From positions 1 through 16,313 of the IMG/VR virus record IMGVR_UViG_2609459861_000002: DNA of 16,313 nt; one strand, written 5' to 3'. Both the position numbers and the translations under genes were made by a program. The DNA is from a virus (lineage: Duplodnaviria; Heunggongvirae; Uroviricota; Caudoviricetes). Shown piece by piece: positions 1 through 16,313 of the stretch. The notes under the pieces were generated by a model. It saw nothing but the letters and a program-made list of their open reading frames with translations, made no database searches and was not told the DNA's origin. How positions within the stretch are numbered: position 1 is the stretch's first letter; the number at the start of each line of letters is the position of its first letter.

Positions 1-1254
1 ATGCTGGAACAAATGGGCATTGCCGCGAAGCAAGCCTCGTATAAATTAGCGCAACTCTCCAGCCGCGAAAAAAATCGCGTGCTGGAAAAAATCGCCGATG
101 AACTGGAAGCACAAAGCGAAATCATCCTCAACGCTAACGCCCAGGATGTTGCTGACGCGCGAGCCAATGGCCTTAGCGAAGCGATGCTTGACCGTCTGGC
201 ACTGACGCCCGCACGGCTGAAAGGCATTGCCGACGATGTACGTCAGGTGTGCAACCTCGCCGATCCGGTGGGGCAGGTAATCGATGGCGGCGTACTGGAC
301 AGCGGCCTGCGTCTTGAGCGTCGTCGCGTACCGCTGGGGGTTATTGGCGTGATTTATGAAGCGCGCCCGAACGTGACGGTTGATGTCGCTTCGCTGTGCC
401 TGAAAACCGGTAATGCGGTGATCCTGCGCGGTGGCAAAGAAACGTGTCGCACTAACGCTGCAACGGTGGCGGTGATTCAGGACGCCCTGAAATCCTGCGG
501 CTTACCGGCGGGTGCCGTGCAGGCGATTGATAATCCTGACCGTGCGCTGGTCAGTGAAATGCTGCGTATGGATAAATACATCGACATGCTGATCCCGCGT
601 GGTGGCGCTGGTTTGCATAAACTGTGCCGTGAACAGTCGACAATCCCGGTGATCACAGGTGGTATAGGCGTATGCCATATTTACGTTGATGAAAGTGTAG
701 AGATCGCTGAAGCATTAAAAGTGATCGTCAACGCGAAAACTCAGCGTCCGAGCACATGTAATACGGTTGAAACGTTGCTGGTGAATAAAAACATCGCCGA
801 TAGCTTCCTGCCCGCATTAAGCAAACAAATGGCGGAAAGCGGCGTGACATTACACGCAGATGCAGCTGCACTGGCGCAGTTGCAGGCAGGCCCTGCGAAG
901 GTGGTTGCTGTTAAAGCCGAAGAGTATGACGATGAGTTTCTGTCATTAGATTTGAACGTCAAAATCGTCAGCGATCTTGACGATGCCATCGCCCATATTC
1001 GTGAACACGGCACACAACACTCCGATGCGATCCTGACCCGCGATATGCGCAACGCCCAGCGTTTTGTTAACGAAGTGGATTCGTCCGCTGTTTACGTTAA
1101 CGCCTCTACGCGTTTTACCGACGGCGGCCAGTTTGGTCTGGGTGCGGAAGTGGCGGTAAGCACACAAAAACTCCACGCGCGTGGCCCAATGGGGCTGGAA
1201 GCACTGACCACTTACAAGTGGATCGGCATTGGTGATTACACCATTCGTGCGTAA
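1..1254 (+). CDS. proA: gamma-glutamyl phosphate reductase (glutamate-5-semialdehyde dehydrogenase)
   Basis: Full-length 417-aa ORF; I recognise the translation as enterobacterial ProA. Window begins at its start codon. Confidence 0.97.
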
Positions 1255-1368
1255 ATAAAACCGGGTGATGCAAAAGTAGCCATTTGATTCACAAGGCCAT
1301 TGACGCATCGCCCGGTTAGTTTTAACCTTGCCCACCGTGATTCACGTTCGTGAACATGTCCTTTCAGG

Positions 1369-1444
1369 GCCGATATAGCTCAGTTGGTAGAGCAGCGCAT
1401 TCGTAATGCGAAGGTCGGAGGTTCGACTCCTCTTATCGGCACCA
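1369..1444 (+). tRNA. thrW: tRNA-Thr, anticodon CGU
   Basis: Cloverleaf readable by eye: acceptor GCCGATA/TATCGGC, D-arm GCTC..GAGC, anticodon stem GCGCA/TGCGA with loop TTCGTAA (anticodon CGT), T-arm GGAGG-TTCGACT-CCTCT, 3' CCA encoded. Sits directly after proA as thrW does in E. coli. Confidence 0.93.
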
Positions 1445-1458
1445 TTTAAATCAATAAG

Positions 1459-2622
1459 TTACACATCATTAGTACCTTCCTTATTTTTTGACTGGGACAA
1501 ATTTGGGACCGATGGGTTCAGGATCGAGTCTATTTGCCGTGCGTGTTCGGTAAGGTGATTAGGTGCGAGGTGAGCATATCGACGAACCATTTCGATAGAC
1601 TCCCAGCCTCCCATTTCCTGTAACACTGACAACGGGACACCGGCTTGAACCAGCCAACTTGCCCAGGTGTGTCTCAAGTCATGAAATCTGAAATCATCAA
1701 TACCAGCTCGTCTCAGCGCCGCTTTCCAGGCTGTGTTTGCGTCATACCGCATCTTCCTGACTGTTGGCGCTTTCGTTCCGTCTGGTTTGGTACAGCTTTC
1801 CTTGTACACAAATACCCAACGGTGATGATTCCCGATTTGTTTTTTCAATACGCGACATGCAGTATCATTCAGCGCAACGCCAATTGCGCGGTTTGATTTA
1901 CTCTCTTCCGGGTTTATCCATGCCACCCGGCGCTGCATATCTATTTGTTGCCATTCAAGGTTGATGATGTTCGAGCGTCTTAAGCCTGTTGCCAGTGCAA
2001 ATTCAACAACAGACTTTAATGGCTCCGGACATTCATCAATCAGCCTTTGTGCTTCATGGGGCTCCAGCCAGCGGATCCGTTTATTCTTTGGTTGAGGCAC
2101 TTTAATAATTGGTGCCTTATCCAGCATTTTCCATTCACGCTCTGCGGCTCTTAGTAGGGCCTTTATAAATGAAAGATGCGTAGCCTTCGTTGCAACGGAC
2201 GCTGGTTTTGGCGTGTATTCTGGAACAGGTTTCCCTTTTTTTCTGCATGCTTCTGCCCTGAGTTTCCAGTTTTCCTCATGACGCCGGTTCGTCATTTTCT
2301 GCATTGCTGAATAAATTTTTGATTCAGTGATGTCTCTTAGTTGCATCCCTGCGAAATGTTGAAGCCAGAATCCGATCCGGCTTTTGTCATCGTCCAGTGA
2401 TTTCTTATGTGCTTTCTCTTCGAGCCACCTGACACACGCTTCCTCAAACGTCATATCAGGTATTTCACCAAGTTTGCTGACCCGCCATGCTTCAGCCTTT
2501 AGCTTGTCATGGAGCTCTGTCGCCTGCCTTTTGTCCTTTGTTCCAAGAGACTGTTTAAATCTTTTACCGTTCGGCAATGTGAAACTGGCGTACCATATTT
2601 CACTTCTGCGGAAGAGTGACAT
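1459..2622 (-). CDS. int: phage tyrosine integrase (lambdoid Int family)
   Basis: 387-aa ORF beginning [27 protein letters not shown], which I recognise as the IntD/IntF-type prophage integrase of E. coli; C-terminal HDLRHTWAS (HxxR) and RRYAHL (catalytic Tyr region). Stop codon lies 15 nt from the tRNA CCA end. Confidence 0.93.
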
Positions 2623-2849
2623 TTTCTTTCCTCTGTTATGCCATCACCCGCGCTCACCTTGATAGTATGCAGCGGAGACTGAAGCGCCGCAATGCAGGCT
2701 TGTCGCGTTGTGAGGTAAGGAGATTTTGGTTTAGTGGGGTCTTTGCGTGTTGCCTGTAGGCGGCCTGTTCGTATCCAGTTGGTGGCGGTTGGTCTGGATA
2801 TCTTAAGAAACTGACAGGCCTCATCGAGTGTGAGGCTGTATGATTCCAT
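2499..2849 (-). CDS. xis: excisionase / AlpA-type helix-turn-helix protein
   Basis: HTH-like segment [29 protein letters not shown] at 2849 is preceded by GAGG with 5-nt spacing; the longer track ORF starts at an upstream GTG. Lies immediately upstream of int, and its 3' end overlaps the int 5' end by about 120 nt, so one of the two ends is uncertain. Confidence 0.65.
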
Positions 2850-3099
2850 GGTTACCTCTGCTTTTTGAACGCATGTCACGTAACTTCTTAATGTGTTCTG
2901 CCGTTTCGATCTCTTCTGCTATCCGATCTGCATCAGCTTTATTCACAGGTTCAAAGTCATGATTAAAGCGGAACATGCTGGCGATACATGTTCTGCCTTT
3001 TCGGATGTAGTGAACTTTGTTGTGGGTAGAACGCAGGATTTTGCAGGGAGTGCCGTGGTGGTCGACGTACCAGGTGTTAGGAAAAATGATTCTGAACAT
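2821..3099 (-). CDS. hypothetical phage protein (92 aa)
   Basis: ORF with protein-like composition; ATG at 3099 preceded by GAGGT at 5-nt spacing; overlaps the xis start by 29 nt as in compact phage operons. Family not recognised. Confidence 0.5.
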   Translation of the reverse strand: MFRIIFPNTWYVDHHGTPCKILRSTHNKVHYIRKGRTCIASMFRFNHDFEPVNKADADRIAEEIETAEHIKKLRDMRSKSRGNHGIIQPHTR

Positions 3100-3146
3100 T
3101 TTTACACCTCAGTTGGACGATGTTGAAATTTGCTGCTTTGAGGCCA

Positions 3147-3365
3147 TCACAGTCCCCATTGTTTGTTCTTAAGTTCGATCTCCTCCTGGCAACTTGCACA
3201 AGTCCGACAACCCTGAACAGCCAGGCGTCTTCGCTCATCTATCGGATCGCCACACTCACAACAATGAGTTGCGGATACAGTCTGGTAGTTCAGACGACGC
3301 ATTTTTATTGCTGTATTGCGCTGTAATTCTTCGATTTCTGATGCTGAATCAATGATGTCTGCCAT
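3147..3365 (-). CDS. TraR/DksA-family C4 zinc-finger protein
   Basis: 72-aa ORF with CCECGDPIDERRRLAVQGCRTCASC, i.e. CxxC-(17)-CxxC, at the C-terminus; size and motif spacing match phage and plasmid TraR homologues. Confidence 0.8.
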   Translation of the reverse strand: MADIIDSASEIEELQRNTAIKMRRLNYQTVSATHCCECGDPIDERRRLAVQGCRTCASCQEEIELKNKQWGL

Positions 3366-3418
3366 CTTCCATTAATCCCTGAATTGTTGGTTAATACGCT
3401 TGAGGATGAATGCGAACA

Positions 3419-3443
3419 ATAAAAAAGGAGCCTGTAGCTCCCT
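3419..3443 (-). terminator. candidate intrinsic terminator downstream of the 3464-3679 ORF
   Basis: On the minus-strand RNA: stem GGAGC/GCUCC (extendable by a G-U and an A-U pair), loop UACAG, followed by UUUUUUAUUG. Confidence 0.4.
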
Positions 3444-3463
3444 GATGATTTTGCTTTTCATGT

Positions 3464-3679
3464 TCACCGTTCCTTAAAGACGCCGTTTAACATGCCGATC
3501 GCCAGGCTTAAATGAGTCGGTGTGAATCCCATCAGCGTTACCGTTTCGCGGTGCTTCTTTAGTACGCTACGGCAAATGTCATCGACGTTTTTATCCGGAA
3601 ACTGCTGTCTGGCTTTTTTGATTTCAGAATTAGCCTGACGGGCAATGCTGCGAAGGGCGTTTTCGTGCTGAGGTGTCAT
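3464..3679 (-). CDS. hypothetical phage protein (about 71 aa, start uncertain)
   Basis: C-terminal 71 residues from MTPQHENALRSIARQ are protein-like; the upstream in-frame extension to 3778 is Cys/His-rich and less convincing. No strong SD at any candidate start. Confidence 0.4.
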   Translation of the reverse strand: MTPQHENALRSIARQANSEIKKARQQFPDKNVDDICRSVLKKHRETVTLMGFTPTHLSLAIGMLNGVFKER

Positions 3680-3755
3680 TGAACAAGTCCCATGTCGGCA
3701 AGCATAAGCACACAGAATATGAAGCCCGCTGCCAGAAAAATGCATTCCGTGGTTG

Positions 3756-4133
3756 TCATGCAGCCTCCCGACGGGCAAGAATCCTTGAGCCGAACGCCAT
3801 CAACTCTCCACGATCAACGGTCGTAAAGTGGCAGTGTGTACGGGGGTATGGGTGCCAGATAATGAGCATCGAACCTTTATTATTTCCACTGACGGGTTTC
3901 TCAGTGAGTGGGTTAATAAATGCCAGTCGTCCTGCCGTGATGAATCTGACCTCACTGGCGGTTTGTATCGCTTCATGAAACCATCCGACAGATGTGTCAG
4001 CAGGCAATAACATTACACATCCCACACTACTGAATTTGTTTTCAGTGGCTGCCTTTTTCACAAAAGGGGAAATATTGCTGTATGGTGGATTCAACCAGAC
4101 ATAACCAGAGGCATATCTGGCTGAAAGAGGGGG
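3756..4133 (-). pseudogene. phage N6-adenine DNA methyltransferase (Dam family), 5'-truncated
   Basis: Translation contains the NPPY catalytic motif followed by MLLPADTSVGWFH..EVRFI.GRL.F.NP, as in phage Dam-type methyltransferases. Only 13 codons precede NPPY before an in-frame stop at 4134-4136, and there is no ATG; the track start is a TTG at the NPPY codon. The N-terminal part expected in this family is absent. Confidence 0.6.
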
Positions 4134-4143
4134 TTATTAAGGC

Positions 4144-4506
4144 GTGAATACCTACAGTATCACATTACCCTGGCCTCCGAGCAATAATCGCTATTACCGC
4201 CATAATCGCGGGCGCACGCACGTCAGTGCAGAGGGGCAGGCATACCGCGATAACGTCGCCCGAATCATTAAAAGCGCAATGCTGGATATCGGCCTGGCTA
4301 TGCCTGTGAAAATCCGCATTGAGTGCCACATGCCGGATCGCCGTCGCCGTGACCTGGATAATCTGCAAAAAGCCGCTTTTGACGCACTCACTAAAGCAGG
4401 TTTCTGGCTGGATGATGCTCAGGTCGTTGATTACCGCGTTGTGAAGATGCCTGTTACCAAAGGTGGGAGGCTGGAACTGACCATCACCGAAATTGGGAAT
4501 GAATGA
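4144..4506 (+). CDS. rusA: crossover junction endodeoxyribonuclease RusA (Holliday junction resolvase)
   Basis: 120-aa [27 protein letters not shown]...; I recognise it as nearly identical to E. coli prophage RusA. GTG start with GAGGGGG upstream. Confidence 0.93.
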
Positions 4507-4643
4507 TGTTTGAGTTTTATATGGCAGAACTTCTTCGCCACCGCTGGGGGCATCTGCGCTTATATCGTTTCCCCGGTTCTGTTTTGACCGATTACCGAAT
4601 ACTGAAGAATTACGCCAAAACCCTGACAGGAGCAGGAGTATGA
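4503..4643 (+). CDS. ylcG: YlcG-like small phage protein (46 aa)
   Basis: Hand translation from the ATG overlapping the rusA stop (ATGA) gives [46 protein letters not shown], matching the small gene that follows rusA in DLP12-type prophages. Below the ORF-track size cutoff. Confidence 0.65.
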
Positions 4644-4728
4644 AGTCAGAGATAACAATCAACTAATACTGTTTTGTTGATTTTTGCTTGTAATTGGCGT
4701 TCTGGTCTGATTTTTGTGGAGTAAGTTG

Positions 4729-5112
4729 ATGCGTGATATTCAGATGGTTCTTGAGCGTTGGGGAGCGTGGGCGGCTAATAATCATGAAGATGTGACCTGG
4801 TCGTCCATTGCCGCCGGTTTTAAGGGATTAATTACTTCAAAAGTAAAATCTCGCCCGCAATGTTGTGACGATGACGCGATGATTATTTGCGGGTGCATGG
4901 CCCGTCTGAAAAAGAACAACAGCGATTTGCACGATTTATTAGTAGATTATTATGTAGTCGGTATGACATTCATGTCACTGGCAGGTAAGCATTGCTGCTC
5001 TGATGGTTATATCGGGAAAAGGTTACAGAAGGCTGAGGGCATAATTGAAGGGATGTTAATGGCATTAGATATCCGGTTAGAGATGGATATCGTTGTTAAT
5101 AACTCTAATTAA
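4729..5112 (+). CDS. late-gene antiterminator Q (Q82/QuuD type)
   Basis: 127 aa from the ATG at 4729 ([22 protein letters not shown]...), with Cys clusters [12 protein letters not shown] and HCC typical of the Q zinc-binding fold; sits between the rusA/ylcG nin remnant and the lysis genes. Confidence 0.85.
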
Positions 5113-5145
5113 TATGCCAATTGTTTACTAAAAATTATTAAAAAT

Positions 5146-5163
5146 GGGGCGTTGAGACGCCCC
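5146..5163 (-). terminator. intrinsic terminator downstream of the porin gene
   Basis: Stem GGGGCG/CGCCCC with 6-nt loop; on the minus strand it is followed by AUUUUUAAUAAUUUUU. The plus-strand side is A-rich, so it is not a plus-strand terminator. Confidence 0.5.
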
Positions 5164-5301
5164 CAAAAATAAAGGGTAATATATAACAGAAGGTTTATAT
5201 AGTTAGAAGCAAGGTTGTGCTTCTAAAGGAAGGGGTTGGGGGGAGCCCTTTATATGGGGGGGAGGCACCGCCCCCCGCAACATATCTTTTTCGTAATCAG
5301 A

Positions 5302-6399
5302 TTAGAACTGGTAAACCAGACCTACAGCAACGATGTCATCAGTGCTTACACCGAGTGCTTTAGTGAAGTCATTTTTGTCAAGCAGGTTGATTTTGTAATC
5401 AACGAAAGTAGACATATTTTTGTTGAAGTAATAGGTTGCACCTACATCAACATATTTGACTAAGTCCTGATCGCCCCATACTCCAAGATCCTTACCTTTA
5501 GATTGCAGGTAAGCAACGGACGGACGCAGACCGAAATCGAACTGATATTGTGCAACAGCTTCGAAGTTTTGGGCTTTATTAGCAACGAAGTGATCAGCAA
5601 ATACAGTCATATTCTGGGTTTCAGAATAGGTAGTGGCCAGGTAAATGTTGTTAGCGTCATATTTCAGACCTGCGGCCCAAACTTCTGCATTTTTACCGGA
5701 AGCAAATACTTCAGGAAGAACTTTCCCTGCATTAACTTGAGTGTCGGTACGATCAGATTTCGCATAAGTTGCACCGATACCGAATCCTTCGTATTCATAG
5801 GTAGCAGAGAAACCGAAGCCATCACCGTTACCTTCAGTGTAGTTATCGAAATCGCTACGATCGTTTTTGCCTTGGTACTGAGCAGCAAAGTTCAGACCAT
5901 CAACCAGACCAAAGAAGTCGTTGTTACGATAGGTTGCAACACCAGTTGCACGTTGAGTCATGAACACGTCGGTTTGAGTCCAAGTGTCACCACCGAATTC
6001 TGGCAGGACGTCAGTCCACGCACCGATGTCGTATGCTACACCGTAGTTACGGCCGTAATCGATGGAGCCGTAGTCACCGAATTTCAGGCCAGCGAAGGCA
6101 AGACGGGTTTTATCTTTGGAGGAACCTTGAGATTCAGCGCGGTTGCCTTTGAATTCATATTCCCACTGACCGAAACCAGTCAGTTGATCGTTGATTTGGG
6201 TTTCACCTTTGAAGCCAAGACGGGCATAAGTAGTATCACCATCATCTGCATCATTAGAGGAGAAGTAGTGCTTAGCATTAACTTTCCCGTACAGATCCAG
6301 CTTGTTACTGTCTTTATTATAAATTTCAGCTGCCTGAGCAGACATCGCCATCAGTACTGATGCAGCTACAGCAGAAATTGCCACTGTTAATTTTTTCAT
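5302..6399 (-). CDS. nmpC: outer-membrane general porin, prophage-encoded (NmpC/Lc/OmpC family)
   Basis: 365-aa ORF with signal peptide [30 protein letters not shown], porin-like Gly/Tyr/Asp-rich beta-barrel composition and C-terminal YQF. I recognise the N-terminal mature sequence as the NmpC/Lc-type phage porin. Intact, with no IS disruption. Confidence 0.93.
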
Positions 6400-6940
6400 C
6401 GTGAGCCCTTTTTTTTGAACTATTATTAAAAAATGATGTCACTGCGCGATAAATATTCATCTAATCAATGTGATTATTTCAAGATGTAAGTTTTGGTTTC
6501 TCGTTTGATTTGTGAAGTAGATCTCTATTTTTATCTGAACTTTTTTCTATCGAATCCTATTCATAGCTCTTGGCTGAATAAAAATAAATCTATTAGCCAA
6601 TTTATATTAACGGCTGTTATTTATAAGTGCTCTATAATTTGAAGATTCAATTTAAATCGGCTAAAAATAACACTGGAAATTATTTGTTAGTTATTTGTTG
6701 AGGTTTTCTTATGTATTTGTGGTGGTGTTTTGAACACTCGGTAGCATTCTCATAAATATCATTCAGTGGTTTACGTACGTAAAAAATTGGTTATGCTGTT
6801 AAGAGTGGTTACTTCGTCACACAGCTTAAACCCGCCGTCGAGCTGGTTTTTCCATTTTTTGAGTCTCGATATTAGCTGATAACTCAATACCTGAGTTATT
6901 CACTGACTCCGAGTCTGTTACGTTTCTGCTTTTTTGCGAT
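6400..6940. promoter_or_regulatory. AT-rich upstream region of the porin gene; may also hold plus-strand late-operon signals
   Basis: About 540 bp of strongly AT-rich non-coding DNA with A/T tracts, of the kind found upstream of enterobacterial porin genes. No specific sites assigned. Confidence 0.3.
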
Positions 6941-6988
6941 ACGTTGTATTCCCTCAATTTACACCCGCTTTGTCTGCGAGGTGGGGTT

Positions 6989-7204
6989 ATGAAATCCATG
7001 GATAAGTTAACAACGGGTGTCGCCTATGGCACCTCAGCAGGTAGTGCCGGTTACTGGTTTTTACAGCTGCTCGATAAAGTCACGCCCTCACAGTGGGCGG
7101 CAATAGGTGTGCTGGGTAGTCTGGTATTTGGCTTGCTGACGTACCTGACAAACCTTTATTTCAAGATTAAAGAAGATAAGCGCAAGGCTGCGAGAGGTGA
7201 ATAA
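6989..7204 (+). CDS. class II holin (phage 21 S-type pinholin) with dual-start motif
   Basis: 71 aa, [26 protein letters not shown]...: two predicted TMDs, Met1-Lys2-Ser3-Met4 dual start, charged C-terminus; GAGGTGGGG SD 2-10 nt upstream. The longer track ORF starts at an upstream TTG. Confidence 0.9.
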
Positions 7205-7701
7205 TGCCTCCATCATTACGAAAAGCAGTTGCTGCTGCTATTGGTGGCGGAGCAATTGCTATAGCATCAGTGTTAATCACTGGCCCAAGTGGTAACGATG
7301 GTCTGGAAGGTGTCAGCTACATACCATACAAAGATATTGTTGGTGTATGGACCGTATGTCACGGGCATACAGGAAAAGACATCATGCTCGGTAAAACGTA
7401 TACCAAAGCAGAATGCAAAGCACTCTTGAATAAAGACCTTGCCACTGTCGCCAGACAAATTAACCCATACATCGAAGTCGATATACCGGAAACAACGCGC
7501 GGCGCTCTTTACTCATTCGTTTACAACGTGGGTGCTGGCAATTTCAGAACATCGACGCTTCTTCGCAAAATAAACCAGGGCGATATCAAAGGCGCATGTG
7601 ATCAGTTACGTCGCTGGACATATGCTGGCGGTAAGCAATGGAAAGGTCTCATGACTCGTCGTGAGATTGAGCGTGAAATCTGTTTGTGGGGTCAGCAATG
7701 A
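7204..7701 (+). CDS. SAR endolysin (T4-lysozyme-fold muramidase, phage 21 R-type)
   Basis: 165 aa; N-terminal Gly/Ala-rich weakly hydrophobic SAR segment [20 protein letters not shown] followed by the lysozyme motif GLEG..Y.D..G..T; start overlaps the holin stop (TAATG). Confidence 0.93.
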
Positions 7702-8159
7702 ACAGAGTAACCGCGATTATCTCCGCTCTGGTTATCTGCATCATCGTCGGCCTGTCATGGGCTGTTAATCATTACCGTGATAACGCCATTACCTACAAAG
7801 CCCAGCGCGACAAAAATGCCAGAGAACTGAAGCTGGCGAACGCGGCAATTACTGACATGCAGATGCGTCAGCGTGATGTTGCTGCGCTCGATGCAAAATA
7901 CACGAAGGAGTTAGCTGATGCGAAAGCTGAAAATGATGCTCTGCGTGATGATGTTGCCGCTGGTCGTCGTCGGTTGCACATCAAAGCAGTCTGTCAGTCA
8001 GTGCGTGAAGCCACCACCGCCTCCGGCGTGGATAATGCAGCCTCCCCCCGACTGGCAGACACCGCTGAACGGGATTATTTCACCCTCAGAGAGAGGCTGA
8101 TCACTATGCAAAAACAACTGGAAGGAACCCAGAAGTATATTAATGAGCAGTGCAGATAG
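7698..8159 (+). CDS. Rz i-spanin
   Basis: ATG at 7698 overlaps the endolysin stop (ATGA); N-terminal [21 protein letters not shown] then a charged coiled-coil-like periplasmic domain; closely resembles lambda Rz. Confidence 0.9.
7918..8100 (+). CDS. Rz1 o-spanin lipoprotein (embedded in Rz, +1 frame)
   Basis: 60-aa ORF wholly inside Rz; lipobox LVVVGC, proline-rich mature region [13 protein letters not shown]. Confidence 0.85.
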
Positions 8160-8190
8160 AGCTGCCCATATCGATGGGCAACTCATGCAA

Positions 8191-8484
8191 TTATTGTGAG
8201 CAATACACACGCGCTTCCAGCGGAGTATAAATGCCTAAAGTAATAAAACCGAGCAATCCATTTACGAATGTTTGCTGGGTTTCTGTTTTAACAACATTTT
8301 CTGCGCCGCCACAAATTTTGGCTGCATCAACAGTTTTCTCCTGTCCAATTCCCGAAACGAAGAAATGATGGGTGATGGTTTCCTTTGGTGTTACTGCTGT
8401 CGGTTTGTTTCCAACAGTAAACGTCTGTTGAGCACATCCTGTAATAAGCATTGCCAGAGCGGCAGAAAACAACATTTTTTTCAT
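8191..8484 (-). CDS. bor: Bor lipoprotein (serum-resistance-associated moron)
   Basis: 97 aa from MKKMLFSAALAMLITGC (lipobox ITGC); I recognise it as lambda Bor-like. Opposite orientation to the lysis genes, as in lambda. Confidence 0.9.
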   Translation of the reverse strand: MKKMLFSAALAMLITGCAQQTFTVGNKPTAVTPKETITHHFFVSGIGQEKTVDAAKICGGAENVVKTETQQTFVNGLLGFITLGIYTPLEARVYCSQ

Positions 8485-9341
8485 CTTATTATCCTGTATT
8501 GTTAAAAACAGCAGAATCCTATGTGACAACAATTAAACGATAGTTAAATGGATTGATGAAAATTAAAACTATATAGGTGTACGGTCAGACTATTGGAGGT
8601 AGTCTGGATTTGAATGTCAGTGTGTTGTCGGCATTATGGCAATGCAATTTGGATAAAGCGGGGATTAAAAAGATAGAGGCGAGCCGGTCAGGTAGAAATG
8701 AATCAGGCTCAAAGTGAAGCGGAAAAGGTCTTTGGCACAAACTGATGCTGCCATAATTACAGCCTGATGACTTGTGGAATGAAACATGTTGAACCTCCTT
8801 AATTGATGTTATTCGAGTGAGGAAGGCATTCTGTCCTCCTATACTGTCCAGTAAATCAAACAGGAAGCTTGTCTCACGTGTGAGACAAGCCTCTCCATTA
8901 GCGAGTTGTATTGATCACAACTCTTCAAAGAATTCATTACTGGGTAGATGAAAATAGTTTCACGATGAATGGAGGAGGCTATGTTGGTGGCTTCTTCATT
9001 GGAGTACATATGCCCCCACGAACCCCAAAAACCTGCCGTGTTCGCGGCTACCGCAATACCACCACAGATCCGTCAGGCTATTGCAAAAGCCACAAAAGCG
9101 AAGGCTGGAAGCAATACAAGCCGGGCCAGTCCTGTCATCAGCGCGGTTATGGTTCGCGGGGTTGTCCCTCATGCTCGCCAGTCCTGTGCGGGGGGGGGAA
9201 GAAACAGGACACTCACACAGATTTTTGTGGGTCGATGCTATTCCTTTCTGGATTATCCCGATGCCATTCATGCAAGGGCTGTATCAGACGTTCGTCATGG
9301 CTGTCAGGCTGACGGGTCCTCCCGGTGGGGGGGCCTGCCAC

Positions 9342-9528
9342 GGGGCGGGAGCGTCGCGGAAAAAGGCTAGTTTTTGCATTTTTATCGGCCACCATCATCT
9401 TTACATCTTATTGATTATTAATGATTATTTGTTTTTTGTATGTCGAATTGCGTGTTTTTTGTTCGACATCGAACGCGTTTTCTTAAAGTTGTTCGCACGA
9501 TGCATGTTTAAAGCTCTCCGGAGGAAAT
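9342..9528. other. candidate cos region (cosN-like core followed by A/T-rich cosB-like segment)
   Basis: CGGGGCGGGAGCGTCGCGG at 9341-9359 matches the lambda cosN core as I remember it (CGGGGCGGCGACCTCGCGG) in both flanks, differing in the central 5 nt; followed by an A/T-rich stretch with repeated TTCGA/TCGAA motifs, directly upstream of the small terminase gene. Confidence 0.4.
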
Positions 9529-10020
9529 ATGGATCATGAGTTGAAAAACCTGGTGCTGAATATTAATCAACTGGCGGCTTTATCTGGTCTGCACCGCCAG
9601 ACTGTCGTGGCAAGACTGAAAAACATTCGTCCCGCTGGTGGACATGACAAACTCAAGCTATACCGGTTGACCGATATTCTGACTGAATTTATGGGGTTAC
9701 CACCGCCGGTTGCTGAGGGCGAAATGGATCCACATGAACGCAAAGCCTGGTATCAGTCTGAACGTGAGCGTCTTAAGTTCGAACAGGAAACGGCACAACT
9801 CATTCCGGCCAGTGATGTCAGACGGGAGTTTGCCATCTGGGCAAAAGCGGTCGTGCAGGTGCTGGAGACATTACCGGATATTCTGGAACGTGACTGCGGC
9901 CTGCAGCCTGCTGCTGTGAGCCGTGTTCAGTCCATTATTGATGATCTGCGCGATCAGATAGCCCTGCGGGTGACCGAAGCAGGTGCGGATGATGAGGAGG
10001 AATTACAGCAGGAGGAGTAA
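9529..10020 (+). CDS. terminase small subunit (Nu1 family)
   Basis: 163-aa ORF with N-terminal HTH-like segment LNINQLAALSGLHRQTVVARLKNI and acidic C-terminus; stop overlaps the start of the large-terminase ORF (TAATG), the standard Nu1-A arrangement. Confidence 0.8.
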   Translation: MDHELKNLVLNINQLAALSGLHRQTVVARLKNIRPAGGHDKLKLYRLTDILTEFMGLPPPVAEGEMDPHERKAWYQSERERLKFEQETAQLIPASDVRREFAIWAKAVVQVLETLPDILERDCGLQPAAVSRVQSIIDDLRDQIALRVTEAGADDEEELQQEE

Positions 10021-11312
10021 TGCTGAATCAGGAAACCGCAAAGGCAGCACGAACCGATTCAGGTTATATCCTTCGCGCACCGAGACGAATGCGGGTTGCT
10101 GATGCCGTTGCTCAGTATATGCGAGTGCCCATGGGGGCCGGGAACTCAGTCCCGTGGGATCCGCTGGTGGCACCGTATGTTCTTGAGCCGATGAACTGCC
10201 TGGCCTCGCGTGAATACGACGCAGTGATATTTGTTGGTCCGGCACGAACCGGCAAGACTATCGGCCTGATTGACGGCTGGGTGATTTACAACGTGATTTG
10301 CGATCCTGCGGATATGCTGATCATTCAGATGACGGAGGAAAAAGCCCGCGAACACTCCAAAAAACGACTTGCCAGAACGTTTCGCGTCAGCCCGGAAGTG
10401 GTCAGTCGCCTGAGTCCGAACAAAAATGACAACAACGTTTATGACAGAACATTCCTTGCTGGCAACTACCTGAAAATCGGCTGGCCGTCAGTCAATATCA
10501 TGTCCTCATCAGATTATAAATGCGTGGCGCTGACGGATTATGACCGTTTTCCGGAAGATATTGATGGCGAGGGGGATGCCTTCTCTCTTGCCTCAAAACG
10601 TACCACCACATTTATGTCCAGTGGTATGACGCTGGTGGAGAGTTCCCCCGGCAGGGATGTGAAGGATGTGAAATGGCGACGGACTTCACCGCATGAGGCT
10701 CCACCAACCACGGGGATACTGTCGCTCTATAACCGTGGCGATCGCCGTCGCTGGTACTGGCCCTGTCCACACTGTGGTGAGTATTTTCAGCCCTGCGGCG
10801 ATGTGGTTGCTGGTTTCCGTGATATTGCCGATCCCGTGCTGGCAAGTGAGGCGGCTTATATTCAGTGTCCTTCCTGTTCAGGACGGATTATGCCTGAACA
10901 AAAACGTGAGCTGAACGGACGTGGGGTCTGGTTGCGGGATGGTGAATCCATCAATGCGGATGGCAGTCGTTATGGTGATCCCCGACGCTCACGTATTGCG
11001 TCATTCTGGATTCCACCCATTATCTTTAACGGAATAGCGTATAGCGATCCGGGAAGTGGTAATAACCCGGGAGGTACAAGATACACGGGTTATGGTTTTG
11101 AAGTTCGCAAAAACGGTGTATTAATCGCATCCAGAGAAACTAAAGGGGCCATTCCCGGTAGCTACAGTGCGGTTATTGATATGCCGAGTGGCAGGGGAAG
11201 CGTCACTCTGGAGTTTAAGGTTTTCCATAAAGGCAATCAGTGGGCAGGTAATATCACCGACTGTACGGTGATTGTGACCAAAAAAGCTGCTTCCGGCATC
11301 AGTATTCGTTGA
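10020..11312 (+). pseudogene. terminase large subunit (gpA family), N-terminal ATPase region only, fused in frame to about 100 unrelated codons
   Basis: Residues 1 to about 330 carry gpA-like landmarks (P-loop VGPARTGKT, CPHCGEYFQ zinc motif, GVWLRDG). Lambda gpA is about 640 aa; here the ORF ends at 430 aa and its last 100 residues do not resemble terminase. A hairpin-plus-T6 terminator and lom follow, which is the position of the J 3' end in lambda. Confidence 0.7.
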
Positions 11313-11333
11313 AGTTGTTATAACCCATATAAG

Positions 11334-11357
11334 GGCACCAGAAATGGTGCCTTTTTT
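11334..11357 (+). terminator. intrinsic terminator
   Basis: GGCACCA-GAAA-TGGTGCC stem-loop followed by TTTTTT. Confidence 0.7.
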
Positions 11358-11381
11358 ATTGCAGAAAAGCGAGAGGTAATT

Positions 11382-11981
11382 ATGCGTAAACTTTATGCCG
11401 CCATTTTGTCCGCAGCCATTTGTCTGGCCGTATCCGGTGCGCCTGCATGGGCATCTGAACATCAGTCCACGCTGAGCGCGGGGTATCTTCATGCCCGGAC
11501 CAACGTTCCCGGCAGCGATGATCTGAACGGGATTAACGTGAAATACCGTTATGAGTTTACGGACACACTGGGGCTGGTGACGTCATTCAGCTATGCAGGA
11601 GACAAGAATCGCCAGCTGACCCATTACAGCGATACCCGCTGGCATGAAGATTCCGTTCGTAACCGCTGGTTCAGCGTAATGGCGGGGCCGTCTGTGCGCG
11701 TGAATGAATGGTTCAGCGCGTATGCGATGGCGGGTATGGCTTACAGCCGTGTTTCGACTTTTTCCGGGGATTATCTCCGCGTAACTGACAACAAGGGGAA
11801 AACGCATGATGTGCTGACCGGAAGTGATGACGGTCGCCACAGCAACACGTCTCTGGCGTGGGGGGCTGGCGTGCAGTTTAACCCGACCGAATCCGTGGCC
11901 ATTGATATTGCTTATGAAGGCTCCGGCAGTGGCGACTGGCGCACTGACGGTTTCATCGTGGGGGTCGGTTATAAATTCTGA
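11382..11981 (+). CDS. lom: Lom outer-membrane protein (Ail/Lom/PagC family)
   Basis: 199 aa with signal peptide ending AWA/SEH and C-terminal IDIAYEGSGSGDWRTDGFIVGVGYKF, which I recall as identical to the lambda Lom C-terminus. Confidence 0.92.
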   Translation: MRKLYAAILSAAICLAVSGAPAWASEHQSTLSAGYLHARTNVPGSDDLNGINVKYRYEFTDTLGLVTSFSYAGDKNRQLTHYSDTRWHEDSVRNRWFSVMAGPSVRVNEWFSAYAMAGMAYSRVSTFSGDYLRVTDNKGKTHDVLTGSDDGRHSNTSLAWGAGVQFNPTESVAIDIAYEGSGSGDWRTDGFIVGVGYKF

Positions 11982-12008
11982 TTAGCCAGGTAACACAGTG
12001 TTATGACA

Positions 12009-12034
12009 GCCCGCCGGTTCAGGCGGGCTTTTTT
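12009..12034 (+). terminator. intrinsic terminator downstream of lom
   Basis: GCCCGCC-GGTTCA-GGCGGGC stem-loop followed by TTTTTT. Confidence 0.75.
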
Positions 12035-12045
12035 GTGGGGGGAAT

Positions 12046-15000
12046 ATGGCAGTAAAGATTTCAGGTGTACTGAAAGACGGCGCAGGTAAACCGGTACAGA
12101 ACTGCACAATCCAGCTGAAAGCAAAACGTAACAGCACCACGGTGGTGGCGAACACGGTGGCCTCAGAAAATCCGGATGAAGCCGGGCGTTACAGCATGGA
12201 CGTTGAGTACGGTCAGTACAGCGTTATTCTGTTGGTGGAAGGCTTCCCGCCATCGCATGCCGGGACCATCACCGTGTATGAAGACTCACAACCGGGTACG
12301 CTGAATGATTTTCTCGGTGCCATGACGGAGGATGATGTCCATCCGGAGGCACTGCGCCGCTTTGAACTGATGGTGGAAGAGGTGGCGCGTAACGCGTCCG
12401 CAGTGGCGCAGAACACAGCAGCCGCGAAGAAGTCAGCCAGCGATGCCGGCACATCAGCCCGTGAGGCGGCAACCCGTGCAACTGATGCTGCAGGCTCAGC
12501 ACGTGCAGCCAGCACGTCAGCCGGACAGGCCGCTTCGTCGGCTCAGTCAGCGTCTTCCAGCGCAGGAACGGCATCAACAAAGGCCACTGAAGCATCAAAA
12601 AGTGCTGCCGCTGCAGAGTCTTCAAAAAGCGCGGCAGCCACCAGTGCCGGTGCAGCGAAAACGTCAGAAACGAATGCCGCAGCATCACAAAAATCTGCGG
12701 CCACTTCTGCATCCACCGCGACCACGAAAGCGTCAGAAGCTGCCACCTCAGCCCGGGATGCGTCGGCTTCAAAAGTGGCGGCAAAATCATCAGAAACGAG
12801 CGCAGCCTCGAGCGCCGGCAGTGCAGCTTCCTCGGCAACGGCGGCAGGAAATTCCGCGAAGGCCGCAAAAACGTCTGAGATGAATGCGGATAACAGCGCA
12901 CAGGCGGCAGCAGACTCACAAACTGCATCGGCAAATTCCGCGACAGCAGCCAAAAAATCAGAAACCAACGCGAAAAATAGTGAGTCAGCAGCAAAGGTCA
13001 GCGAAACCAACGCTAAAGCGTCAGAGAACAAGGCGAAAGAATATCTCGACAAGGTCGGGGGACTCGTCAGCCCGATGACGCAATACGATTGGCCCGTTGT
13101 TACTGGTAATGAGTCTTTTTACATAAAGATCGCGAAACTTTCCGATCCCGGAAGCAACAATTGCCATGTAACGCTAATGGTTACTAACGGCGGTGACTAC
13201 AGCTCCCCTTACGGAAACATTGACTTTATCGAGATCTCGGCGCGCGGTCTGCCTTCTTCGCTTACTGCTGATAATGTATCTCGTTACCTGAGTATACGCC
13301 GTTTAGGGCCAACCGGGCTAATCAATAGCATGCAAATGCGTTACGGCCTGGTTAAAGATGATGGCTTTATTGAGGTTTGGGCCTTCCAGCGTGCATTTAT
13401 CAACGGCGCAAAGGTTGCGGTACTGGCGCAGACGGCACGCACGGAATTATACATTCCAGACGGATTTGTTAAGCAAACCGCCGCGCCTTCTGGATATGTT
13501 GAAAGCCCCGTTGTAAGGATTTACGACCAGTTAAACAAGCCGACTAAAGCAGATTTGGGCCTTTCTAATGCTATGCTTACAGGCGCTTTTGGTCTTGGCG
13601 GTAGCGGTCTTGTTTTGGATGGTAAAATGACCGATAAGGAACTACTACAAGAGCTAAGGGCGAAAGGTGGGTGTTTCTGGAGGTCAGGAAAACCAACAGG
13701 TAGCGAATCAACAATTTTCAGCCACGGTTCTGGTATATTCTCGCGGTGCGGCGATACGTGGTCAGCTATTAATATCGATTACGAAAGCGGTAGAGTAAAG
13801 ATTTACTCTAGTAACGATAATAGACTCAACAATGGTACTTTTAACATAAATGAGCTATACGGAACCAAATACAAGCCGTCGAAATCGGATGTTGGACTTG
13901 GTAACGTAACTAACGATGCGCAGGTGAAAAAATCCGGCGACATTATGTCAGGTGATCTGTCGATCACTAAAGCAACACCTTCACTATACCTGCGTTCAAA
14001 AAGTGGAACCGCCCATGTATGGTTCCAAAATGAGGATCAGTCGGAACGCGGCGTTATTTTTGCGCCTACAAATACTGATACGCTTGGCGAAGTTCACATC
14101 AGGGCTAAAAACGCAAAAGGTCAATCAAGTGGTGATTTTATTGTTCGTCACGACGGGATGGTTGAAGCCCGTGATCTCACATTAGCGGGTAAAACTAAAG
14201 GCGCAAAAGCAGAATTTGCAAACACAAGCACTAGCTCCGATGATACTACGGTAAGCATAAAAGGATCTCAGCATACTCCTCTGGTTTTAACGCGCAACAA
14301 CACAATTAAAAATTTATCCATTGGGTTTAAGGTTGATGACGTTGACCAAAAATATCTCGGCATATACGGTGACGGTGATTTGTATTTTGGTGGTTATTCT
14401 GACCACACAAAAAACAGCAAAGTAATTACACAAGCAATACTCGATAGCGGGGTAACGGTAGGCGGCAAAACAACATTTTCTGACCTTGCCACATTTAACG
14501 CAGGTATGTCTGGGCCTATCGAGCCGGAAGCCATTGAAGGCATGACTATCGATCTTAATGACCTTATCATTAAGTTCACGGATAAAGGTTCAGTTAAATA
14601 CTATCACTGCAAAACTGCCGGAGGCGGTTCGAATATTACCAATAAGCCTGACGGCGTAGGCGGCAACTTTTTGCTTCGTGTAGAGTCAATTCGTAAGGTT
14701 AGTGATTCAGATTATATAAACATGCAAACGCTGATTAGCGGCGACAAAGGACGCGTGCATGTTCGTTTTGTTACTAATGGTAATTGGACAGCATGGAGCG
14801 AGCATGTTGTTTCAGGATGGAATCAGGATGTGACCGTCAGGTCGTTAACCTCGACGACTCCATCAAAATTAGGCGGCGGGCGTGTTGATGTGCTGGGGAG
14901 TACGTCAGATTACAGTAGTATGAATTGTGCTGTGCGCGGTGTTGATAGCACTGGAACCAATTCGGCGTGGTCAGTAGGTACATCGAAAAACACGGGAAAA

Positions 15001-15804
15001 ATGTTGTGCCTTAAAAACCACAGAAGCAGCGCTCAAGTGCTGTTAAATGGCGATGATGGCGCGGTGCAACTACTAAGCGGTACTGTCAACGGTGCTACAG
15101 CACAGGCGCTAACCATCAACAAAGATGAGGTTAACTCAACTGCTGATTTAGTAATTAGAAAACAGTCAGGGACTGGCAATCGTTTTGTTTTAAAGAACGC
15201 AGGTAATGCAGAACTACCGTTTAACATCAGTGTATGGGGTTCAAGTGATCGACAAAACGTTTTTGAGGTTGGAACGTCTGCTGCGTATCTGTTTTATGCG
15301 CAAAGAACGCCAGCAGGCCAGTTGTTTGATGTAAATGGCGCTATTAATTGCACAACGCTGAATCAGTCATCAGACCGCGACCTTAAAGACGATATTCTCG
15401 TTATCAGCGACGCGACGAAAGCAATCCGCAAAATGAACGGGTACACCTACACGCTCAAGGAAAACGGCCTTCCTTATGCTGGCGTTATTGCACAGGAAGT
15501 AATGGAGGCGCTACCGGAAGCCGTAGGATCGTTTACTCGTTACGGTGAAGAATTGCAGGGTCCGACCATTGATGGCAACGAGCTACGCGAAGAAACGCGT
15601 TACCTCAATGTTGATTATGCGGCGGTGACTGGTTTACTTGTCCAGGTCGCCCGTGAAACAGATGATCGCGTTACCGCGCTGGAAGAGGAAAACACAACGC
15701 TACGTCAAAATCTGGCAACAGCAGACACCCGGATCAGCACTCTGGAAAATCAGGTAAGCGAACTGGTTGCACTTGTCCGGCAGTTAACAGGAAGCGAACA
15801 TTGA
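12046..15804 (+). CDS. stf: mosaic side tail fibre: lambda Stf-like N-terminus, divergent central domain, C-terminal intramolecular chaperone (peptidase S74-like) domain
   Basis: 1252-aa ORF. N-terminus MAVKISGVLKDGAGKPVQNCTIQLKA... is near-identical to lambda Stf as I recall it, followed by an Ala/Ser/Thr/Lys-rich repetitive shaft. Central region, from about residue 337, is unrelated. C-terminal 143 aa begin SS/DRDLK (Ser and Lys at i+5) and end in a heptad-like coiled coil, as in self-cleaving chaperone domains of endosialidase and T5 pb1-type fibres. Confidence 0.9.
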   Translation: MAVKISGVLKDGAGKPVQNCTIQLKAKRNSTTVVANTVASENPDEAGRYSMDVEYGQYSVILLVEGFPPSHAGTITVYEDSQPGTLNDFLGAMTEDDVHPEALRRFELMVEEVARNASAVAQNTAAAKKSASDAGTSAREAATRATDAAGSARAASTSAGQAASSAQSASSSAGTASTKATEASKSAAAAESSKSAAATSAGAAKTSETNAAASQKSAATSASTATTKASEAATSARDASASKVAAKSSETSAASSAGSAASSATAAGNSAKAAKTSEMNADNSAQAAADSQTASANSATAAKKSETNAKNSESAAKVSETNAKASENKAKEYLDKVGGLVSPMTQYDWPVVTGNESFYIKIAKLSDPGSNNCHVTLMVTNGGDYSSPYGNIDFIEISARGLPSSLTADNVSRYLSIRRLGPTGLINSMQMRYGLVKDDGFIEVWAFQRAFINGAKVAVLAQTARTELYIPDGFVKQTAAPSGYVESPVVRIYDQLNKPTKADLGLSNAMLTGAFGLGGSGLVLDGKMTDKELLQELRAKGGCFWRSGKPTGSESTIFSHGSGIFSRCGDTWSAINIDYESGRVKIYSSNDNRLNNGTFNINELYGTKYKPSKSDVGLGNVTNDAQVKKSGDIMSGDLSITKATPSLYLRSKSGTAHVWFQNEDQSERGVIFAPTNTDTLGEVHIRAKNAKGQSSGDFIVRHDGMVEARDLTLAGKTKGAKAEFANTSTSSDDTTVSIKGSQHTPLVLTRNNTIKNLSIGFKVDDVDQKYLGIYGDGDLYFGGYSDHTKNSKVITQAILDSGVTVGGKTTFSDLATFNAGMSGPIEPEAIEGMTIDLNDLIIKFTDKGSVKYYHCKTAGGGSNITNKPDGVGGNFLLRVESIRKVSDSDYINMQTLISGDKGRVHVRFVTNGNWTAWSEHVVSGWNQDVTVRSLTSTTPSKLGGGRVDVLGSTSDYSSMNCAVRGVDSTGTNSAWSVGTSKNTGKMLCLKNHRSSAQVLLNGDDGAVQLLSGTVNGATAQALTINKDEVNSTADLVIRKQSGTGNRFVLKNAGNAELPFNISVWGSSDRQNVFEVGTSAAYLFYAQRTPAGQLFDVNGAINCTTLNQSSDRDLKDDILVISDATKAIRKMNGYTYTLKENGLPYAGVIAQEVMEALPEAVGSFTRYGEELQGPTIDGNELREETRYLNVDYAAVTGLLVQVARETDDRVTALEEENTTLRQNLATADTRISTLENQVSELVALVRQLTGSEH
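12400..13050 (+). repeat. degenerate tandem coding repeats (Ala/Ser/Thr/Lys-rich shaft of the tail fibre)
   Basis: Recurring motifs KTSETNA, KSSETSA, KTSEMNA, KKSETNA, KVSETNA in the translation; GC-rich, and it generates long spurious ORFs in other frames and on the opposite strand. Confidence 0.6.
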
Positions 15805-15984
15805 TATCCTTCAAGCTCTGAAGGAGGCTGTTCCCGGTACGTTCAGACTGTTGTTGAGCTGGAGATCGCAACGGAGGAAGAAACCTCATTGCTGGAAGCC
15901 TGGAAAAAATATCGGGTGTTGCTGAACCGTGTTAATACAACAACTGCACCGGATATTGAGTGGCCAGAAGAACCTATAGGGTAA
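15805..15984 (+). pseudogene. tail fibre assembly protein (Tfa), 3' remnant without start codon
   Basis: The 60 codons immediately after the fibre TGA, in the same frame, end ...[36 protein letters not shown], which reads as a Tfa C-terminus; there is no ATG/GTG with an SD in this frame. Confidence 0.5.
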
Positions 15985-16054
15985 ATTCGTAATGATTACC
16001 TAAATACGTTATTCTTTTGTTCAAAAAGTGATTTTGCTATAGGTAGGGAGTATG

Positions 16055-16313
16055 GGTGATGCTGCCAACTTACTGATTTAGTGTATGATGGTGTTTTTGA
16101 GGTGCTCCAGTGGCTTCTGTTTCTATCAGCTGTCCCTCCTGTTCAGCTACTGACGGGGTGGTGCGTAACGGCAAAAGCACCGCCGGACATCAGCGCTATC
16201 TCTGCTCTCACTGCCGTAAAACATGGCAACTGCAGTTCACTTACACCGCTTCTCAACCCGGTACGCACCAGAAAATCATTGATATGGCCATGAATGGCGT
16301 TGGATGCCGGGCA
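16055..16313 (+). mobile_element. IS1 insertion sequence, left end (partial, runs off the window)
   Basis: From GGTGATGCTGCCAACTTACTGAT (the IS1 terminal inverted repeat) onward the sequence matches IS1 as I remember it, through the insA 5' region. Confidence 0.92.
16110..16313 (+). CDS. insA: IS1 InsA (partial, 5' portion)
   Basis: GTG start at 16110; hand translation gives [68 protein letters not shown], the InsA N-terminus. Missed by the ORF track because it has no stop inside the window. Confidence 0.88.

Follow-up and report, generated by a model that had tools for sequence, protein, structure and literature searches.

How does a lambda-type side tail fibre fold when the gene for its assembly protein survives only as a stub? 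The question is raised by one end of a 16,313-nucleotide (nt) stretch of DNA (IMG/VR record IMGVR_UViG_2609459861_000002, positions 1 to 16,313; hereafter the window), in which a lambda-type side tail fibre gene, stf, is followed by a remnant of the tail fibre assembly gene tfa. The most plausible answer, to which a probability of roughly 85% can be given, is that Stf carries its own chaperone. Its last 144 residues, Ser1109 to His1252, would act as an S74 intramolecular chaperone (IMC) that cleaves itself off the fibre. The whole would then be a self-chaperoning fibre module that has no need of a separate Tfa because the chaperone is built in, and that has spread together with the tfa scar after a single recombination.

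The identity of the domain follows from its sequence. The Pfam profile Peptidase_S74 (PF13884, 'chaperone of endosialidase') matches residues 1109-1160 over profile positions 1-57 of 58, with 47.4 bits (E 2.3e-12) for the whole protein and 51.5 bits (E 1.2e-13) for the last 145 residues, where the curated gathering cut-off is 22 bits. The preliminary description of the window, made from its letters alone, had placed an S74-type chaperone at this C-terminus, and the profile search bears it out. The first profile position falls on Ser1109. The domain lies at the extreme C-terminus of a fibre protein and its 144 residues fit the range of the family (about 130-155), while PHROG tail-fibre families span the C-terminal domain through its end. 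Near-identical proteins are named 'pyocin knob domain-containing S74 family peptidase' by RefSeq/PGAP; this name, we assume, probably comes from a domain-architecture rule and not from a hidden Markov model, and a scan of the whole Stf against NCBIfam returned no family. Sub-threshold Pfam hits (APC_N_CC, Csm1_N and similar) were dismissed as products of coiled-coil composition.

The bare Ser-Asp-x3-Lys motif is a different matter. Shuffling the protein at constant composition gives an expectation of 0.48 occurrences per shuffled sequence, and in 2% of the shuffles an occurrence is correctly spaced from the C-terminus. At about half an occurrence by chance the motif alone therefore proves nothing, and the significance of the site comes from the profile match instead. 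That the spacing is a coincidence is nevertheless next to impossible, as the Pfam match already refutes it and both the predicted fold and the conservation contradict it.

Among solved structures, the distal long tail fibre protein gp37 of Salmonella phage S16 (6F45) is nearest in sequence; it reads NVSSDRRIKKDI where Stf reads NQSSDRDLKDDI. A single-sequence phmmer search of the PDB returned only S16 gp37 and coiled-coil noise, and neither endoNF nor T5 was matched. A profile built from 21 homologues reached 6F45 (E 1.6e-10), the ICA domain of MyRF over its whole length (7DC3, E 1e-5) and the GA-1 neck appendage chaperone (3GUD, E 0.21). The homologues are all close relatives from E. coli, and many are frameshifted or incomplete; such a set is sufficient for conservation and structure alignment and not for deep diversity.

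The predicted catalytic pair can be located precisely. The segment NQSSDRDLKDDIL covers residues 1106-1118 (nt 15361-15399). Within it, Ser1109 and Lys1114 align with residues 587 and 592 of MyRF (7DC3, in which Ser587 is mutated) and with SSDRRIK of S16 gp37. Neither the 18-21 aligned homologues nor the 80 viral loci show any substitution at Ser1109, Asp1110 or Lys1114, and in the same 80 loci the residue before the serine varies between Ser, Leu and Thr. The second serine of the doublet is therefore the conserved one. Aligned positions and invariance together point to Ser1109 as the predicted nucleophile, with its Lys, the predicted general base, at +5. The MyRF residues are the equivalents of Ser911 and Lys916 of endoNF, and both are indispensable for cleavage (PMC8326128); in T5 pb1 the dyad is Ser1264/Lys1269 (PMC4690869).

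From these relatives we infer where Stf would be cut. In T5 pb1 the bond Thr1263-Ser1264 is broken and the serine leaves with the chaperone, as it does in K1F according to the same study (PMC4690869). In MyRF the cut was mapped to Pro586|Ser587 by mass spectrometry (PMC8326128). With the bond N-terminal to the catalytic serine in both T5 pb1 and MyRF, the predicted cut in Stf is Ser1108|Ser1109 (nt 15369|15370), which would yield a fibre of 1108 residues and a fragment of 144. One system differs: the phi29 model, with weaker density, leaves the serine on the mature side (PMC4690869), and among the systems compared it is the only one to do so. The preliminary description had put the cut after Ser1109 (NQSS/DRDL), which is one residue too late by homology with T5 pb1 and MyRF. 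Its lysine at +5 stands (five residues from Ser1109 to Lys1114), and so does its fragment of about 140-150 residues, which counts 143 from Asp1110 and 144 from Ser1109. The sequence that it quoted is present, but the coordinates given, 15361-15390, span just the first ten codons.

The predicted fold agrees with the assignment. An AlphaFold2 monomer model of residues 1001-1252 (18-sequence alignment; mean predicted local distance difference test score, pLDDT, 72.5) has beta strands up to residue 1096 and short helices at 1110-1116, 1123-1128 and 1149-1155. These are followed by a long hairpin and a single long helix (Table 1). An alpha/beta body, a hairpin tentacle and a terminal coiled coil are thus all present in the model. 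In the T5 pb1 chaperone, too, beta-hairpin tentacles accompany a mixed alpha/beta part and a trimeric coiled coil forms the end; the tentacle is described for K1F as well (PMC4690869), and the solved T5 and MyRF domains also end in a long coiled coil (PMC4690869, PMC8326128). Foldseek recovered four solved S74 chaperone structures, 7DC3, 3GUD, 3GW6 and 4UW8, with 3GW6 at a probability of 0.87-0.96. The fold scores are modest, as one would expect when an intertwined trimer is modelled as a monomer; even so, the specific recovery of four S74 structures is not what chance would give.

The part of the model before the cut resembles the C-terminal region of T4 gp34 (residues 1059-1109, nt 15220-15372; phmmer E of about 0.03, Foldseek fold E 3e-4). 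T4 gp34, the proximal long tail fibre protein, has no S74 domain itself. The coiled-coil-like end of the preliminary description, residues 1210-1247 (15673-15786), keeps an unbroken a/d heptad register within the long predicted helix. In the best register 14 of the 19 a/d positions are hydrophobic, compared with 4-11 in the other six. Relatives differ here by one heptad, NQVSELV (residues 1238-1244, nt 15757-15777), giving forms of the domain with 146 and 153 residues; in some further relatives the chaperone domain lacks about 20 more residues. By profile match, dyad alignment and predicted fold, the domain is an ordinary and already annotated S74 intramolecular chaperone.

Several known systems can be set beside Stf. 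T5 pb1 is likewise a long siphovirus side fibre with a C-terminal chaperone (about 134 residues in T5) and a Ser/Lys(+5) dyad. It shares the architecture of mixed alpha/beta body, tentacles and terminal trimeric coiled coil, and its chaperone is cleaved off after folding. In T5 the active site is complete only after the trimer has folded, when Arg1250 and Asp1239 of a neighbouring chain join it. Identity between the IMC domains of T5-like phages and that of the window reaches 68%. S16 gp37 has a nearly identical cleavage motif. However, it belongs to the long tail fibre of a myovirus, with a separate adhesin, gp38, at the tip, and the sequence similarity is restricted to the chaperone domain. 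The K1F endosialidase endoNF (3GW6), founding member of MEROPS S74 and Pfam PF13884, is a tailspike with a sialidase head and a triple beta-helix stalk and not a long fibre; structure-based identity is about 10-12%. MyRF is a eukaryotic membrane-bound transcription factor, where the cleavage frees a DNA-binding domain and does not mature a fibre (PMC8326128). At its other end, Stf resembles the Stf of lambda. It has the phage_tail_N attachment domain (residues 1-134, E 4.4e-71), lies downstream of J and directly 3' of lom, and is followed by the same tfa gene, here as a remnant. In lambda-type loci such as that of phage ev099, by contrast, the fibre lacks an S74 domain and an intact Tfa of 194 residues follows. 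Compared with these canonical loci, the tip-plus-chaperone part is replaced in the window by a self-chaperoning module.

By analogy with the K1F endosialidase, T5 pb1 and MyRF, maturation of Stf may proceed as follows. The C-terminal coiled coil would bring three nascent chains into register, and the mixed alpha/beta body with its tentacles would template the distal fibre domain as it folds into a trimer. After correct trimerisation, Ser1109, activated by Lys1114, would attack the Ser1108-Ser1109 bond. The 16-kDa chaperone would then leave, and a mature fibre of 116 kDa with an exposed receptor-binding tip would remain.

Does the domain actually leave? It could stay in place as a permanent C-terminal trimerisation cap, or be silent cargo of a dead prophage. 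An in-frame fusion of terminase and J has removed all head and tail genes from this genome, which leaves no selection on virion function, and the P22 tailspike is cited as an auto-chaperone that is not cleaved (PMC4690869). Yet Ser1109, Asp1110 and Lys1114 are intact and invariant in more than 100 relatives. The Stf of the isolated phage Ayreon differs from that of the window at 17 of 1252 residues and at none beyond residue 981. In T5, moreover, the cleaved domain inhibited infection by competition and an uncleaved fragment that still contained the chaperone did not (PMC4690869), a result which suggests that the tip can bind its receptor only once the chaperone has gone. An uncleaved domain is accordingly considered unlikely, and self-cleavage remains the preferred account.

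What of the stub? The 59 codons after the stf stop match Caudo_TAP (PF02413) at profile positions 86-130 of 131 only (70.4 bits, E 2.1e-19). Aligned with the intact tfa of phage ev099 (194 codons), the DNA is homologous from 15842 (tfa nt 440) through the stop codon at 15985 and for another 70 nt. No in-frame ATG or GTG is present. The stretch is a remnant and not a member gene of the Tfa family, and the equivalent stretch elsewhere is labelled by PGAP as a pseudogene ('tail fiber assembly protein, incomplete, missing N-terminus'). A tripeptide, SEH, that is common to the end of Stf and to Tfa was considered as a sign of longer hidden homology and rejected, since the local DNA alignment begins only at 15842. 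Read-through of the stf UGA into the in-frame remnant was rejected too, there being no supporting signal.

The junction was surveyed in 80 IMG/VR loci that encode the chaperone domain. Wherever the 153-residue form is encoded and the sequence extends at least 148 nt downstream, the remnant is present, starting from Tfa residue 147, and none of these loci has a full-length tfa. The remnant starts 39 nt past the first base of the stf stop codon, and the same tfa breakpoint is found in 48 independent viral loci. It is shared by phages Ayreon, mEp460 and PhiR70_1 and by IS1-free prophages at other chromosomal sites. Such a breakpoint, common to related loci, marks an ancestral cassette junction. 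The 20 loci with the 146-residue form (phages of about 54 kb) have no trace of tfa; in the one examined, L074, an integrase gene lies 3' of the fibre.

These data also decide whether the stub has anything to do with the chaperone. It could have been left by decay of this one prophage, which is heavily deleted, or by the adjacent IS1 element, which begins 70 nt beyond the remnant stop codon (at about 16056). But tfa has lost its 5' three quarters, whereas IS1 lies at the other, 3' end, and the breakpoint recurs in the loci, phages and IS1-free prophages just named. A local cause is thus highly improbable: the truncation is an inherited recombination junction. The preliminary description was right that a tfa stub lies beside a chaperone-bearing fibre, and wrong in having tfa 'reduced' within this window. 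A single recombination in an ancestor would have brought the module into a lambdoid stf-tfa locus at the cost of roughly the first 146 tfa codons, and the scar would have spread with it. Because all loci share this one junction, the common reading frame of fibre and stub counts as a single 1-in-3 event.

That tfa becomes dispensable where the chaperone is built in, as the preliminary description also proposed, is supported by the remnant-only loci and by the complete genome of Ayreon, a plaque-forming phage that has no Tfa-like sequence besides the remnant. For other coliphages the alternative of a C-terminal IMC or a separate Tfa has been described (PMC11990801). We infer that Stf would fold independently of Tfa. 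Two points weigh on the other side, as cryptic prophages of the host could supply Tfa in trans and side tail fibres are not essential to lambda. The fibre might accordingly still depend on Tfa from other lambdoid prophages, with the built-in domain insufficient by itself. Most E. coli genomes hold several tfa copies: of 5426 complete genomes searched with positions 15000-16080, 3666 matched, mostly through the tfa part. In some loci further tfa fragments lie about 1 kb downstream. On the other hand, T5-like, rV5-like and 54-kb temperate phages with a closely related IMC (50-72% identity) have no tfa annotated under or beside the match, and the C-terminal fragment of T5 folded and cleaved itself in E. 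coli without a co-expressed phage chaperone (PMC4690869). Dependence on Tfa in trans is for these reasons judged improbable.

The chaperone behaves as an exchangeable sub-module: one class of homology boundaries falls on the predicted cleavage site, and another where the coiled coil begins. Blocks shared between the window and related loci start at 14470, 14836 or 15040, a small set of discrete positions; 17 viral loci and PhiR70_1 have theirs at 15325-15401, mostly within about 45 nt of the cleavage-site codon. They end either at about 15693-15704, where the coiled coil starts, or at 15939-16054, inside or just after the stub. PhiR70_1 shares only the sequence from 15361 onward, that is chaperone and stub, behind a different tip.

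The stub itself lies in the stf frame directly after the TGA and is open in 48 of 49 loci, with one frameshift and 36 nucleotide versions. Its last residues vary in the manner of full-length Tfa C-termini (for instance ...PAVPVME and ...PVAPIG). The likely source of this variation is gene conversion with intact tfa genes and not translation, and the pattern suggests that cassettes may be exchanged through the stub as a homology arm. A tentative extension, held at somewhat below even odds, is that the S74 tip and the 47-codon stub form a self-sufficient mobile cassette. It would have been made once, by illegitimate recombination at about Tfa codon 147, and the stub would persist, its frame still open, because it acts as the right-hand homology arm. 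Crossovers inside the stub with full-length tfa genes of other prophages would then spread the cassette among lambdoid genomes. Mosaic boundaries lie inside the remnant, at 15939-15985, and around the cleavage site, at 15325-15364, and both agree with this proposal. Separately, six loci (L006, L011, L037, L038, L054 and L058) have a second C-terminal tfa fragment about 1 kb downstream of stf, and L006 has a third; these could be leftovers of repeated cassette replacements at the stf site.

Little of this is new in kind. The domain family, its mechanism and the alternative of a built-in or separate chaperone are already known, and databases label the protein as S74. No report of cleavage of a lambdoid Stf was found in the literature, and the Eligo paper on lambda-Stf engineering has nothing on chaperones or S74. 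The finding is correct but ordinary, and cleavage of a lambdoid Stf would surprise no specialist. Its value is practical, for annotators and phage engineers, and it opens no new question: a widespread E. coli prophage fibre (in 671 of 5426 complete genomes at least 80% of positions 15000-16080 are covered) is predicted to mature by self-cleavage, its mature tip should end at residue 1108, and chimeric lambda fibres made from this Stf should retain residues 1109-1252 and should not need tfa.

Table 1. Features of the window, with positions in nt and residue numbers of Stf where given
Feature	Position	Strand	Remarks
proA	1-1254		
tRNA-Thr	1369-1444		
Integrase	1459-2622	-	
OmpC/NmpC-type porin gene, complete	5302-6399	-	Porin_1, E 5e-157
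Terminase gpA-J fusion open reading frame	10020-11312	+	430 residues
lom	11382-11981		Ail_Lom match; J C-terminal fragment just before
stf, lambda-type side tail fibre	12046-15804	+	1252 codons and TGA (15802-15804)
Predicted mature fibre, residues 1-1108	12046-15369	+	115.8 kDa; scissile bond of T5 pb1 and MyRF
Ser1108	15367-15369	+	
Intramolecular chaperone (S74) domain, residues 1109-1252	15370-15801	+	144 residues, 16.0 kDa
Ser1109, predicted nucleophile	15370-15372	+	Start of Pfam S74 match; aligned to MyRF Ser587
Asp1110	15373-15375	+	
Lys1114, predicted general base	15385-15387	+	Aligned to MyRF Lys592
Predicted long beta-hairpin ('tentacle'), residues 1160-1189	15523-15612	+	Model strands 160-173 and 179-189, pLDDT 71-85
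Predicted C-terminal helix/coiled coil, residues 1191-1248	15616-15789	+	Single model helix, pLDDT 85-95
tfa remnant	15842-15985	+	Last ~47 codons and stop of 194-residue Tfa; Caudo_TAP, ev099 DNA homology
IS1A-type element	~16056-16313		Inverted repeat and start of insA; runs past window end

The remainder of the window holds a defective lambdoid prophage, integrated at tRNA-Thr beside proA (Table 1). Besides the genes listed, RusA, a Q antiterminator, lysozyme, Rz and a small-terminase-like protein were seen. The porin gene stands between the Q antiterminator and the lysis genes, and porin and Lom are prophage cargo. In the terminase-J fusion, the ATPase domain of the gpA large subunit (residues 41-304) is in frame with the C-terminal receptor-binding domain of J (residues 350-429), from which it follows that a single deletion took out the head and tail morphogenesis region entirely. 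The prophage cannot build tails, and its intact stf is an orphan. The junction of remnant and IS1 had no exact match when one genome per species was searched, and in complete E. coli genomes its two halves match as separate pieces only.

Residues from about 115 to 335 of Stf (12390-13050) form a low-complexity region rich in Ala, Ser and Thr, in which no notable tandem DNA repeat was found. It gives rise to spurious open reading frames on the opposite strand (12269-12994 and 12543-13052). A terminase-J fusion comparable to that of the window is annotated in E. coli W409.
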